IMG/VR virus record: IMGVR_UViG_2684623171_000005
Strand: one strand, 5' to 3'
Source of the DNA: a virus
Lineage: Duplodnaviria; Heunggongvirae; Uroviricota; Caudoviricetes
Length of the DNA: 64,000 nt
Within the stretch, counting starts at the first letter, position 1. Every line of letters begins with the position of its first letter. Positions 45,001 to 51,000 of the stretch are shown piece by piece. Position numbers: made by a program.

Positions 45001-48000
45001 GTGAGCTGGCCCTGTCCAGACTGAAAGGGGAAGAAAAAGAGCGTGCCCGGCTGGGGTATGCGGCGGATGACCTTGGTTTTGTGGGGGATTCGTATCAGGA
45101 GGCGAGACAGCGTTATATCAGTAATGCTCTGGAAGCCTGGCGTAATAACGAGGCGAACAAACCTAAATCCCGGGGTGGAAAATCAGAGACGGAAAAAGCG
45201 GAAGACAGTTTTTCCCGGCTACTGAAGCAGCAGAAAGAGCAACTGGCACTGGCGGGTCAGAATACAGAGCTGGCGAAGCTGAAGTACCAGACTGCGCAGG
45301 GCGAACTGAAAACCCTGACGGAGATGCAGAAGCAGGAACTGCTGCGTAACGCGGCCCTGATTGACCAGCAAAAAATCCGGGAACAGTTGCGATCCCGGGA
45401 AGAGACCCTGAAGAATGATAATGTGGCTGCGCGTGCATCAAATGAAGCCGAACTGCTGGGATACGGGCAGGGAGAACGAGCCAGGGAACGCATGCGGGAG
45501 TTGCAGCAGATCCGCGACAGCTTCCGCCAGAAGGATGCGGACCTTCAGTCTCAGTATCAGACCGGGGATATCAGTGAGGATTTTTACAGACAGGCTCTGG
45601 CACAGAACGCGCAGTATCTGAGCGAACGCCTTAAGGACCAGGCAGTCTTTTATGCCGAATCGGATGTGCAGCGTGCGGACTGGCAGAAAGGGCTGCAGGA
45701 GGGATTCAGTAACTGGGTGGATAATGCGTCCGATTACGCCTCACAGGCAGCACAGCTGGCGACGGAGGGTATCTCAGGGATGGTGAATAACATCACGGAG
45801 ATGCTGAACGGAAATAAAGTGGAATGGCGCAGCTGGGCCTCATCAGTGCTGCAGGAAATATCAAAAGTTCTTATGAATGCCGCGATTGTCAACGGAATTA
45901 AGACGGCGGCAAACGGTATGTCCGGTGCGGGAGGATTTCTCGGCAGCATTGGTGACTGGCTGGGCGGAGCGGTGGCCAATGCAAAAGGCGGCGTGTATAC
46001 CTCGGCAAACCTGAGCGCGTACAGCAACAGCATTGTGGACACGCCCACGTACTTTGCGTTTGCAAAAGGGGCCGGGCTGATGGGGGAAGCCGGACCTGAA
46101 GCTATTATGCCCCTGACCCGGGCGGCGGATGGCTCGCTGGGCGTACGCGCCGTGGGCAGTATGAACGGCAGTGCTGGTCTGGTGTATTCCCCGGTCTACC
46201 ACATCGCCATTCAGAATGACGGGGCTAACGGACAGATAGGGCCGGAGGCGGCAGGCAGTCTTGTGCAGCTGATTGACCAGCGGGTGCAGGCGGTGATGCT
46301 GTCCATGCGACGTGACGGAGGAATGCTGAGTGGCTGAGATAAAAACGCTGCATCTGGTCCCGCGTGAAGGGATGCAGGTGAGTGAGAAGCCGTCGGTGGT
46401 GAGGGTGCGGTTTGGTGACGGTTATGAACAGCGCCGCCCCACAGGGCTGAATCCTCAACTGAAGACGTTTCAGGCGGTGTTCCGGGTGACGGATGAGTCA
46501 ACCCGGCGCTGGCTGGATGAATTTTTATCCTGGCATGGTGGTTACCGTGCCTTTTTGTGGCGACCGCCGAAACATAACCGGACGGTGAGGGTTGTGTGCC
46601 GGGAGTGGAGCGTCACGGATAACGCCCGGTACAGTGATTTCAGCTGTACGATTGAGCAGGTGGTGAACTGATGCAGGACATTCATGAAGAAAGTCTGAAC
46701 GAGTCGGTTAAATCAGAGCAGTCACCGCGGGTGGTGCTCTGGGAAATTGACCTGACGGTGCAGGGCGGTGAGCGGTATTTTTTCTGTAATGAGCTGAATG
46801 AAAAAGGGGAGGCGGTCACCTGGCAGGGGCGGGAATATCAGGCATACCCGATTGACGGCAGCGGTTTTGAGATGAACGGGAAGGGCAGCAGTGCCCGCCC
46901 GTCGCTGACGGTGTCGAATCTGTTCGGTCTGGTCACCGGAATGGCGGAGGACCTGCAGAGCCTGGTGGGGGCCACGGTGGTCCGCCGCCGGGTGTATGCC
47001 CGTTTTCTGGATGCGGTGAATTTTGTGGCGGGCAATCCGGAAGCGGACCCGGAGCAGGAGCTGAGAGACCGCTGGGTGGTGGAGCAGATGTCAGAGCTGA
47101 CGGCCATGACAGCCTCGTTTGTGCTGGCAACACCGACGGAGACGGACGGAGCGCTGTTTCCCGGTCGCATCATGCTGGCGAACACCTGTATGTGGGATTA
47201 CCGGGGAGATGAATGCGGGTATAACGGTCCTGCGGTGGCGGATGAGTTCGATAAACCCACCACGGATATCCGTAAGGACAGATGCAGCAAGTGCATGCGC
47301 GGGTGTGAGATGCGCGGCATGGTGGCTAATTTTGGCGGTTTCCTTTCCATTAATAAACTTTCGCAGTAATGGATTATGCCCACCGTCAGGTGGGTTTTTT
47401 ATTTAGTAGTTCTCTCAACTTTTCGTTCTGCTCTCTGAACTTTTCCTGTATTTCTTTTTGCATGGCGATAACCTGGGCTTGAAGTTGAACTAGCGCATCA
47501 ACATTTAGCGGAACCGAGACGCTGTTAATTTTATCTGCTATTTCCCCGAGTGTATTTTCTGCATTCAAGGCATCTTCCAGTATCTGAACAATCTCTGAGT
47601 TCATAGAGCGCCCGTTTCGTTTGGCTCGTTCAGCTATAGCATCTCGCATTCCGTCAGGAAAACGGAGGTTGAACTTGTCGTAGTCTTTTACTTGTTTTTC
47701 GGCCATTGCAAATCTCTCAAAAAAAATCATGGTGCCATATTGCCATACGATTTCAATGGTGGCATTATGGCCTTCATGGCGTCACTTTGGCACCAAATAA
47801 AGGAGATTAGATAATGCAAGATACACTTTTCACTGAGCGCAAAAATATCAAACTCAACCTTCGCCTTCCATCACGGCTGAATGAAGACCTTCGCCGCCTG
47901 GCGGAAATGGACTGTATATCTCTGAACTCTGCAATTGTTCGTTTGCTGGCAAAAGGTGTTAGGGAAGAGGTGGCGAATGGTCGCTAAAAACAGCGAAGCC

Positions 48001-51000
48001 TCAATGGCTGCAACCATTGAGGCTTCTAAATTACCAGTTAACCACGAGAAAACTGATATGACTAGTTTAGCAATTGCAGATCGCACAATCAATGTTCCAT
48101 TCCACGGAACAAATCTCTTTTTGGTTGGAATTAACAATGAGCCTTATGTTCCTATGAAGCCTGTTGTTGAAGGTATGGGGATGGTTTGGGCTGCTCAATT
48201 TGTTAAGTTAAAACAGAGGTTTGTCAAAGGTATTTCGGAAATCGAAATACCTTCTGCTGGCGGTAAACAGTTAATGACATGTCTTGCCTTTCGTAAATTT
48301 GCGGCTTGGCTTTCAAGCATTCAACCAAACAAAGTCCGCCCTGAAATCCGCGACAAGGTAATCCAGTATCAGGAAGAGTGTGACGATGTGCTCTACGAGT
48401 ACTGGACTAAAGGCCATGTGATTAACCCGCGCAAAGCTAAAAAGGCATTGCCGGGGAAAATCACCACTGAACAGCAGGAAGCCATTAAACAACTCGTCAT
48501 GAGTCGCGGTCAGTCTCTGCCAAAAGAAAAACAGGCGAAGGCGATGATCACCATGTGGTCGTCACTGAAATCTCATTTTGGGTGTTCATACAAAGAAATC
48601 AGCGAGGAGCAGTTTACCGAAGCTCTGTCACTTGCTGCTCGCGTTCCGCTTGAAGGAGAGTTAATCGGCAAACAAGAGAAGAGCACCAACGAGCTTTCCG
48701 CAAAAGAAGCAAACAGCCTTGTATGGCTATGGGATTATGCCAACCGCTCACAGGCATTATTCCGCGAACTGTATCCGGCGCTAAAACAAATTCAATCGAA
48801 CTATTCCGGCAGATGCTACGACTACGGTCATGAGTTCTCGTATGTTATTGGAATGGCGAGAGACGTTTTAATTAATCACACACGAGATGTTGATATCAAT
48901 GAGCCAGACGGACCAACGAATCTTTCCGCATGGATGAGACTTAAGAATAAAGAATTACCTCCTTCACCGCATCACTACTAACAGATTGCCAACGAAATGA
49001 CCCAGCTTCGGCTGGGTTTTTATCAGGAGTTCTCATGCTCTATAGCAATATATTGGCGCACGCCCGGCGATGTGCACCAGCGGAGTCGTGCGGCTTCGTG
49101 GTGAGAACGCCGGAAGGGGAAAGATATTTTCCCTGCGTGAATATCTCCGGTGAGCCGGAAGATTATTTCCGGATGTCGCCGGAGGACTGGCTGCGGGCAG
49201 AAATGCAGGGGGAGATTGTGGCACTGGTCCACAGCCACCCCGGTGGTCTGCCCTGGCTGAGCGAGGCCGACCGGCGGCTGCAGATAAAAAGTGCACTGTC
49301 CTGGTGGCTGGTCTGCCGGGGGGAAATTCATAAATTCCGCTGTGTGCCACATCTGACAGGACGGCGCTTTGAGCACGGGGTGACGGACTGTTACACGCTG
49401 TTCCGGGATGCCTACCATCTGGCGGGAATTGATATGCCGGATTTTGAGCGTGAGGATGACTGGTGGCGCAACGGTCAGAACCTTTACCTGGACAATATGG
49501 CGGTCACCGGCTTTTACCGGGTGCCCCTGTCCTCTGCACAGGCGGGCGATATCCTGCTGTGCTGCTTTGGCGCATCGGTGGCCAATCATGCCGCCATATA
49601 CTGCGGCAACGGTGAACTGCTTCACCATCTGCCTGAACAACTGAGTAAACGGGAGAGGTATTCCGAAAAATGGCAACGACGAACGCATTCAGCCTGGCGT
49701 CACCGCCACTGGCACGTATCTGCCTTCACGGGGATTTACAACGATTTGGCCGCCGCCTCAGCCTGTATGTGAACACGGCAGCGGAAGCCATCCGTGCCCT
49801 GTCGATGCAGATGCCGGGATTCCGCCGTCAGATGAACGAAGGCTGGTACCAGATACGTATTGCCGGTGATGACACGGCACCGGAGGCGGTGTACGCCCGT
49901 CTTCACGAACAGCTGGGTGAGGGAACGGTCATCCACATTGTGCCGCGACTGGCCGGGGCCGGAAAGGGTGGACTGCAGATTGTGCTGGGGGCGGCGGCCA
50001 TCGTGGGGTCGTTCTTCACGGCCGGGGCATCAATGGCGTTATGGGGTTCAGCCCTGGCAGCCGGTGGTTTTTCTGCCACCACGATGCTGTTTTCACTGGG
50101 GGCCAGCATGATACTGGGCGGTGTGGCCCAGATGCTGGCACCGAAGGCAAAAACACCGGATTACCGCGCAACGGATAACGGCAGACAGAACACGTACTTT
50201 TCCTCACTGGACAACATGATTGCTCAGGGGAACCCGATGCCGGTGCCTTACGGTGAAATGCTGGTTGGCTCACGGCGAATCTCCCAGGACATCAGTACCC
50301 GTGATGAAGGCGGTGACGGGAAGGTGGTGGTTATCGGGCGGCAGGCATAAAAGCGAAAAAATCCCGCAGTGACCGAAGGCTGCGGGAACAGAAAATGAAG
50401 ATTAACCACAGGGAGTTTTGTTTTTATTGGCCCGAAAAAACTGTAACGCCCGGGAATGATATCTGCCACGGGGGCGTACAGAAAATGTGAAGAAATTCAG
50501 AAATTTTATTCCGTCATGACACAGGCACCCTCCGGGGTGCCTGTCGTTTTTGGGGCATAAACAGATTCAGACATCAGACATCAGACATCAGACAGGAGAG
50601 GGGGACCGAGTGGGTAAAGGTGGCGGCAGGGCACACACGCCGGTTGAGGCAAAGGACAATCTTAAGTCCACGCAGATGATGAGCGTGATTGATGCCATTG
50701 GTGAAGGGCCGATTGAAGGTCCGGTGAAGGGGCTGCAGAGTATCCTGGTGAACAAAACCCCGCTGACGGACACGGACGGTAATCCTGTGATACATGGTGT
50801 GACCGCGGTCTGGCGCGCCGGGGAGCAGGAGCAGACACCACCTGAAGGCTTTGAGTCCTCCGGGGCGGAAACCGCACTGGGCGTGGAAGTGACGAAGGCA
50901 AAGCCGGTGACGCGCACCATTACGTCCGCGAACATTGACCGCCTGCGGGTCACCTTCGGGGTGCAGTCACTGTTGGAGACCACCTCAAAGGGCGACCGTA

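Follow-up and report, generated by a model that had tools for sequence, protein, structure and literature searches.

We identified a compact immunity module between tail genes L and K of a lambdoid Shiga-toxin prophage, carried on a 64,000-nucleotide stretch of viral DNA (IMG/VR record IMGVR_UViG_2684623171_000005; hereafter, the window). The module is very likely a complete immunity I (immI) cassette of the P22 type, or "ant moron", inserted in the tail operon, and it is intact and probably functional. It forms a 1.65-kb insert of low GC content with a leftward mnt-like gene, a rightward arc-like gene, a rightward ant gene and terminators at both ends, and a sar-like antisense RNA is predicted over the ant ribosome-binding site. 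P22-type immI systems are textbook knowledge; the present case places one in a lambda-type tail operon.

The first-pass annotation, made from the sequence alone, had described a leftward Mnt/Arc-type ribbon-helix-helix (RHH) repressor, a rightward 57-amino-acid Arc-like RHH protein and an Ant-like protein between L and K, where lambda has no genes. Pfam, PDB and identity to the P22 proteins confirm the three assignments, and L and K are indeed adjacent in lambda and in 239 of the 266 phage records holding an L-K junction. The host phage is a Shiga-toxin prophage with a CI-type repressor, CII, Q, three tRNAs, a ribosome-inactivating-protein (StxA) gene, terminase and a lambda-type tail (tape measure, M, L, K, I and J). 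The insert has a GC content of 43–48%, against 55–64% in the flanking tail genes. It bears the marks of a moron, namely absence from close relatives at this site, terminators at both ends and deviant base composition. The features of the region are collected in Table 1.

Table 1. Features of the L-K region of the window, in order of position
Feature	Position	Strand	Basis or remark
Tail gene L (left flank, outside the module)	46671..47369	+	Pfam Phage_tail_L, E=1.1e-91
Left boundary hairpin, GCCCACC-GTCA-GGTGGGT + T6	47378..47401 (stem 47378-47395)	+	Terminator scan; intrinsic terminator
Mnt-like repressor, 106 aa	47386..47706	-	N-terminal RHH domain and C-terminal long helix (putative oligomerisation domain)
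Divergent control region, 107 bp	47707..47813	.	Promoter scan and repeat finder
Candidate operator, outer inverted arms	47730-47742 / 47783-47795		Repeat finder
Candidate operator, inner inverted arms	47734-47745 / 47760-47771		Repeat finder
Candidate operator, direct repeats ATGGTGCCAT / ATGGTGGCAT			Repeat finder
Candidate Pant, TTGCCA, 17-nt spacer, TG-extended CATTAT	47740-47745, 47763-47768	+	Consensus scan
Candidate operator, conserved core CAATGGTG	47754-47761		Invariant in Klebsiella-type relatives
Candidate Pmnt, GTGCCA, 18-nt spacer, CATAAT	47793..47788, 47769..47764	-	Consensus scan
Arc-like repressor, 57 aa, first gene of the arc-ant operon	47814..47987	+	Pfam Arc, 22.1 bits (cut-off 20.4)
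sar-like cis-antisense RNA, ~70 nt	47986..48058	-	Two-hairpin fold over the ant ribosome-binding site
Candidate Psar, TTGATT, 17-nt spacer, TAAACT	48092..48087, 48069..48064	-	Read from the sequence
Antirepressor Ant, 307 aa	48058..48981	+	Pfam P22_AR_N, E=1.2e-39; P22_AR_C, E=1.5e-29
ant terminator, ACCCAGC-TTCG-GCTGGGT + T-run	49000..49021 (stem 49000-49017)	+	Right boundary of the shared module
Joint segment	49022..49052	+	Comparison with the empty site in phage Lys8385Vzw
Tail gene K (right flank)	49035..49772	+	Pfam Prok-JAB and NlpC/P60; PHROG minor tail protein

The antirepressor and its start codon

Over 315 alignment columns, Ant shares 56% identity with P22 Ant (E=4e-118), and its PHROG families carry the name 'anti-repressor Ant'. 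A PDB search with Ant returned no solved relative.

The open reading frame (ORF) of ant extends back to an ATG at 47977 that overlaps the arc stop codon. Initiation there would yield a protein of 334 amino acids, and several records annotate this longer form. We consider ATG 48058 the most likely start. Met1 of P22 Ant aligns to Met28 of the long ORF, and the 81 nucleotides between the two starts align with the non-coding arc-ant spacer of P22 and encode the terminator of the sar-like RNA. The Prokaryotic Genome Annotation Pipeline and other gene callers take the equivalent of 48058 in locus L003 and in the Klebsiella-type loci L035–L038, and in relatives of the L035 type an in-frame TAA precedes that ATG by three codons. 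The lone substitution between the window and L003 in the 47977–48058 stretch would replace Ser by Pro in the putative extension, and in the RNA hairpin it turns a U-A pair into U-G. A start at 48058 makes it probable that the apparent overlap of arc and ant is an artefact of annotation.

A sar-like antisense RNA at the ant start

The 5′ end of the predicted minus-strand RNA lies opposite the A of the ant ATG. Its 5′ hairpin carries a loop complementary to the ant Shine-Dalgarno region and is followed by a 14-bp terminator hairpin (48026..47995) with a U-run, which is the strongest terminator-like hairpin of the region in our terminator scan. A full-length match of the Rfam sar model (RF00262) covers 47992-48058 on the minus strand and scores 29.5 bits (E=0.0029). 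In eight other loci carrying the module, the model matches at the same syntenic position, on the minus strand between arc and ant and directly next to the ant ATG, with 97.8 bits in P22, 52–69 bits in L033, L039 and L040, and 28–31 bits in L003, L004, L005 and L007. In L035 and L037, both of the Klebsiella type, the model gave no match at E<=1, and a hairpin is seen there by eye. The window RNA appears to be a diverged relative of sar outside the curated Rfam threshold; because of this score, the gene is absent from existing annotations.

Comparative evidence points to a maintained structure. An alignment of 16 sequences, drawn from E. coli, Salmonella phage P22, Erwinia, Klebsiella, Yersinia, Providencia, Morganella, Photorhabdus and others, contains compensatory double changes at 8 of the 13 base pairs of the terminator stem. 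Eight representatives fold to the same two-hairpin shape with differing stem sequences (z = -4.4 to -6.7). These are single-sequence folds, used in place of RNAalifold on the MAFFT alignment, which recovered the terminator hairpin alone and in which the columns of the 5′ hairpin were misaligned. Upstream of the RNA, 15 loci, P22 among them, have a -10-like GCTA(T/A)ACT adjoining the complement of the ant ATG, and in most of them TTGAT(T/A) stands 17 nucleotides upstream; this conservation of the candidate Psar is confounded by coding constraint on Ant residues 2–12.

The two ribbon-helix-helix proteins

The Mnt-like protein matches Pfam Arc (E=1.4e-20), the PDB entry 1mnt (E=1.4e-7) and PDB Arc (3e-5), and is 50% identical to P22 Mnt within the RHH domain only. 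Its AlphaFold2 (AF2) monomer model contains helices at residues 20–31, 35–62 and 69–102, with a predicted local distance difference test score (pLDDT) of 76 overall. The C-terminal helix, 69–102, reaches 84–90 and forms the putative oligomerisation segment. The best Foldseek matches of this model are RHH proteins (AmrZ, Arc and CopG), all weak (best E=0.03).

Identity between the Arc-like protein and P22 Arc is 30% (E=7e-6), and a profile of the Arc-like family matches PDB Arc (E=5e-4). Its 58 homologues come from Enterobacterales only and have an invariant K-x-N-L-R-x-P strand; its AF2 model shows two helices (pLDDT 71). The support for an Arc-type RHH identity is modest yet consistent in position, size and motif (N-L-R-x-P).

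Database labels raise another reading, in which the locus is a toxin-antitoxin, partition or anti-phage defence system and not an immunity module. Several records name the 57-amino-acid protein 'toxin-antitoxin system HicB family antitoxin', Pfam gives HicB matches below threshold, and PHROG 795/2685 are labelled 'partition protein ATPase'. The HicB matches reach 17.3 and 18.7 bits, below the Pfam cut-off of 21, and the 1.65-kb insert contains no HicA, ParA or other toxin gene. PADLOC gave no match for Ant or the Arc-like protein and only marginal ones (E ~2e-3) for the coiled-coil part of the Mnt-like protein. As the large protein also has both P22 antirepressor domains, we regard this reading as extremely unlikely.

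Candidate promoters and operators

The mnt-arc spacer is predicted to hold divergent promoters and operators (Table 1). The candidate Pant lies at the same distance from arc as does TTGACA in P22 and five other loci. Among Klebsiella-type relatives with the same Arc-like family, the outer inverted arms hold their position and co-vary symmetrically, from TGGTGCCA/TGGCACCA to TGGGGCCA/TGGCCCCA. On the strength of consensus and conservation, the inverted arms and the core are good operator candidates. The P22 operators are absent from the spacer, which has neither an Omnt of the GGTCCACGGTGGACC type nor an Oarc of the ATGATAGAAGCACTCTACTAT type.

In L035–L038 (2383-2517), each 15-nucleotide inverted arm in the mnt-arc spacer holds TTGAC(A), one per strand, and the divergent -35 elements of these loci may themselves belong to symmetric operator arms. 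Comparison of loci that share one of the two proteins but not the other (L004, L035–L038) did not separate Mnt sites from Arc sites, since in the informative loci the K-x-N-L-R reading strand is common to both proteins.

The control elements also bear on whether Ant might be an SOS-controlled, LexA-repressed antirepressor of the Gifsy/SPC32H type, serving mainly induction rather than superinfection. LexA-controlled, trans-acting antirepressors are known from Salmonella prophages (PMC3121763). No CTGT-N8-ACAG with up to one mismatch occurs within 47300-49100, where Mnt/Arc/sar-type control elements are present instead. The phage CI moreover has an S24 autocleavage domain of its own. SOS control of this kind is very unlikely here.

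Module boundaries and the insertion site

The proposal that terminators bracket the module was borne out by the two hairpins that bound it, both of which are oriented for the plus strand. The mnt-distal hairpin CCCACCGTCAGGTGGG corresponds to the P22 hairpin CCGCCGTCAGGTGG and also stands at the mnt-distal end in L004. The left arm and A-run of this hairpin encode the C-terminus of the Mnt-like protein, NKKPT, and its stop codon, and this tail is kept in Mnt-like homologues whose C-terminal domains are otherwise unrelated. What is conserved at 47386-47401 is therefore the DNA/RNA element, the module boundary, and not a protein motif. At the other end, the ant terminator ACCCAGCTTCGGCTGGGTTTTT has the same sequence in the window and in P22, and similarity to P22 ends directly after it. 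The terminators are shared with P22 at both ends, and the homologous unit therefore runs from terminator to terminator, matching the extent given in the first-pass annotation.

The empty site in phage Lys8385Vzw reads L-TAA-atcca-ATG-K, with K beginning ATG ACA CAG ACA GAA TCA GTG. In the window, the C-terminus and stop codon of L are the same as at the empty site. At the right joint, about six first codons of K have been swapped, giving MLYSNILAH... in place of MTQTESVILAH..., and the joint segment supplies K with a new Shine-Dalgarno AGGAG (49025-49029). This 30-nucleotide segment is not P22-like.

Distribution, alleles and selective constraint

The full cassette was found in 267 of 5,426 complete E. 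coli genomes, with 97.8–100% identity among the copies listed, and is thus common and ordinary in E. coli prophages. The L-mnt joint is present in 254 of these 267 genomes. The ant-K joint is commoner (461 genomes), because other alleles fill the same L-K site. Two such immI alleles lie at L-K in prophages of O157:H7 ECP19-798 (L039, 1679-3334) and JNEC-KY177 (L040, 1020-3032), and comprise two Arc-family genes, an Ant with Bro-N and P22_AR_C domains, and a sar gene scoring 66.7–69.4 bits, above the Rfam threshold. With the window type, at least three alleles are seen at this site. In JNEC-KY177, a ClpP-like protease gene adjoins the Mnt-like gene.

The divergent triad of RHH (minus), RHH (plus) and Ant (plus) recurs in many Enterobacterales loci. 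Related cassettes occur in P22-like prophages, where they separate the ejection-protein genes from the tailspike gene, and in a myovirus-like prophage, beside its baseplate genes. Phage JLK-2012 (L007, 3470-5200) carries the same cassette, 98% identical, in its nin region, and this copy ends at the ant terminator. Its left joint falls at the 10-bp GGATTATGCC, common to the cassette end and to the W-D-Y-A codons of a resident ORF6N/P22_AR_C gene that is truncated there. The arrangement points to joining at microhomology on the left side and to a crossover between homologous sequences on the right.

These placements matter for the idea that the cassette mainly punctuates transcription of the tail operon, setting the ratio of V-to-L to K/I/J through its two plus-strand terminators, repressor-bound DNA and the new ribosome-binding site of K, with antirepression secondary or vestigial. 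Both boundary hairpins face rightward late transcription, K has gained a new Shine-Dalgarno sequence and new first codons, and a similar accidental role was proposed for the P22 ant moron and the level of tailspike (PMC2629481). No L/K ratio exists, however, for the relatives in P22-like and myovirus-like prophages or for the JLK-2012 copy in the nin region. The purifying or structural constraint on ant, arc, mnt and sar would be needless for a pure terminator, and most lambda-like phages manage without the cassette. We therefore consider punctuation as the main function unlikely.

Constraint likewise speaks against inert, hitch-hiking cargo that was acquired by recombination and silenced, with no working antirepressor. 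The Mnt-like gene differs from that of L003 by eight synonymous and no non-synonymous changes, and ant has a ratio of non-synonymous to synonymous changes (pN/pS) of 0.10–0.28 against variants that are 1–2% diverged. None of the three ORFs is interrupted in the window or in the variants examined, compensatory changes maintain the RNA hairpins, and full copies are frequent and nearly identical across genomes. Ant morons are nevertheless often degraded in P22-like phages (PMC2629481), many prophages of Shiga toxin-producing E. coli (STEC) are defective (PMC2669165), and mnt transcripts went undetected in a lysogen of Kapi1, a related coliphage with an mnt-arc-ant locus (PMC12922286). On balance, inert cargo is quite unlikely.

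Proposed mode of action

The biology of P22 immI and the ant moron concept (PMC2629481), together with the known function of sar (PMC12197685), provide the template for our model. DNA-binding and protein-binding steps, promoter activity and Ant targets are taken from homology to P22. In the lysogen, the Mnt-like protein, made from its own promoter, would bind the 107-bp spacer and hold Pant shut, so that no antirepressor is made. As in P22, both RHH proteins would be expected to bind within 47707-47813. When the phage enters a cell without this Mnt, Pant would fire, and Ant would bind CI-type repressors non-covalently and inactivate them; activity against CI/C2-type repressors is predicted from the 56% identity to P22 Ant. 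Ant would thereby lift the immunity of resident lambdoid prophages independently of RecA. Arc, as the first gene product of the same transcript, would then turn off Pant.

The sar-like RNA, made from inside the ant start, would add a further gate by pairing with the ant ribosome-binding site. Such pairing would block Ant translation from any transcript, including Q-antiterminated late readthrough transcripts. The two plus-strand terminators would insulate the cassette in the lysogen, and antiterminated late transcription would have to pass both to express K, I and J. The first-pass annotation saw in Ant a second, repressor-controlled route to inactivate a CI-type repressor. This idea is coherent, because the phage encodes a CI with an S24 autocleavage domain (HTH_3 helix-turn-helix and Peptidase_S24; 9877-10578, minus strand).

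Several observations weigh against this reading. The expected RHH folds were recovered in part: AF2 placed two helices and Foldseek gave weak RHH matches for the Mnt-like model, but the N-terminal strand was missing from the monomer models of both proteins, and Foldseek with the 57-amino-acid Arc-like model returned no matches. As fold confirmation by AF2 and Foldseek is weak, the RHH identification draws on sequence and profile evidence. The Pfam match of the Arc-like protein barely exceeds the cut-off, and the C-terminal domain of the Mnt-like protein is sequence-unrelated to that of P22 Mnt. The sar-like RNA stays below the Rfam gathering score of 43, the promoters match consensus at 9 of 12 positions only, and the operators are candidates. 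To these comes the Kapi1 lysogen with its undetected mnt transcripts. Even so, all four alternatives discussed above fit the data less well than a P22-type immI cassette.

Significance and novelty

If the cassette works as in P22, it would give Stx prophages a RecA-independent means of inactivating CI-type repressors, with possible consequences for the release of Shiga toxin and for interactions between the many lambdoid prophages that STEC strains contain. A broader proposal, conceivable but doubtful at present, is that the L-K junction is a polymorphic immI locus, varying in Mnt/Arc/operator specificity and in the N-terminal domain of Ant, that underlies a RecA-independent cross-induction network in poly-lysogenic STEC. 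In such a network, an arriving or derepressed phage would turn on heteroimmune resident Stx prophages through Ant, and hence toxin release.

The genes themselves are already known, since GenBank/RefSeq records label them as Arc-family proteins and Ant. The present analysis adds the sar-like RNA, a correction of the Ant start and the precise boundaries, and recognises L-K as a polymorphic immI site. We found no paper describing the cassette in lambda-tailed Stx phages, although our literature coverage was incomplete and an earlier description for phage 2851 is possible. The practical gains are small: the Ant start should probably be re-annotated at 48058, the sar-like gene can be added and the L-K site is recognised. 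The current understanding of immunity-I systems is unchanged.

Other features of the window

The three tRNA genes (24527-24767, plus strand) lie between Q and the ribosome-inactivating-protein (StxA) gene at 24722-25822. Rfam further identified a lambda cIII thermoregulator element (6865-6923, minus strand) and the small RNA STnc100 downstream of the toxin gene (26178-26389, plus strand). An ALIL pseudoknot, the frameshift signal of the IS3 family, was found at 14528-14644 on the minus strand (121.5 bits), with ORFs at 13712-14925 on the same strand; it indicates that the early/replication region of the prophage contains an insertion sequence.

Comparison with known systems

The closest relatives of the region are in Stx phages. 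Phages 1717, YYZ-2008, 2851, Stx2a_F349 and WGPS4/6/8 share a 1.8-kb region that is 97.5–100% identical to the window; identity around the cassette is 100% for Stx2a_F349 and 99.6–99.9% for 1717, YYZ-2008 and 2851. Their GenBank/RefSeq records label the genes 'Arc family DNA-binding protein', 'Arc-like repressor' and 'anti-repressor Ant'. They annotate genes only, without the sar RNA, the operators or an immI interpretation, and several use the 47977-type Ant start.

The immI region of P1/P7 (c4 antisense RNA, icd, ant) and the isrK locus of Gifsy-1 resemble the cassette in placing an antirepressor-type protein under an antisense RNA. They differ in their RNA family (C4/isrK), in lacking RHH repressors and in the N-terminal domain of the protein, which is ORF6N. 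A second antirepressor-type locus of this kind lies in the nin region of the window (20662-21664), where Rfam identifies isrK (74.7 bits) and a C4 antisense RNA (66.7 bits). These are followed by a protein with ORF6N and P22_AR_C domains, whose final 104 residues share 82% identity with the tail-operon Ant, and then by a Roi-like protein with Rha and ANT(KilAC) domains (21733-22461). The phage thus appears to have both a P1-c4-type and a P22-sar-type RNA-gated system with one common effector-like domain. If the second P22_AR_C protein is under C4/isrK RNA control, the same effector domain would be subject to layered, RNA-gated regulation.

P22 immI itself (locus L002; mnt, Pmnt/Pant, arc, sar, ant) is the system that the first-pass annotation took the arrangement to mirror, and the likeness extends further than had been described. 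The two loci agree in gene order, orientation, the three protein families, terminators and placement in a late operon. They also share the ant terminator sequence and the mnt-distal hairpin, and their sar RNAs are alike in length, shape and register over the ant ribosome-binding site. As P22 immI also lies inside the late operon (PMC2629481), the late-operon placement in the window is no departure. Differences are found in the host, a lambda-tailed siphovirus, and in the site, which in P22 is between gene 16/sieA and the tailspike gene 9. The Mnt-like protein has 106 amino acids against 83 in P22 Mnt, with a sequence-unrelated C-terminal helix; the operator sequences differ; sar has diverged (29.5 vs 97.8 bits); and the window cassette lacks sieA, hkcC and orf59a.

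The ant moron of P22-like phages (epsilon34, CUS-3, HK620, Sf6 and others) was described by Villafane et al. in 2008 (PMC2629481). Like the window cassette, it is variable, independently transcribed, low in GC, located in the late operon and patchy among relatives, and it often consists of mnt, arc and ant with edges at terminator hairpins. The original account concerned podoviruses, in which the moron lies upstream of the tailspike gene; in the window, the L-K junction of lambda-like tails is the site equivalent to that of the P22 ant moron.

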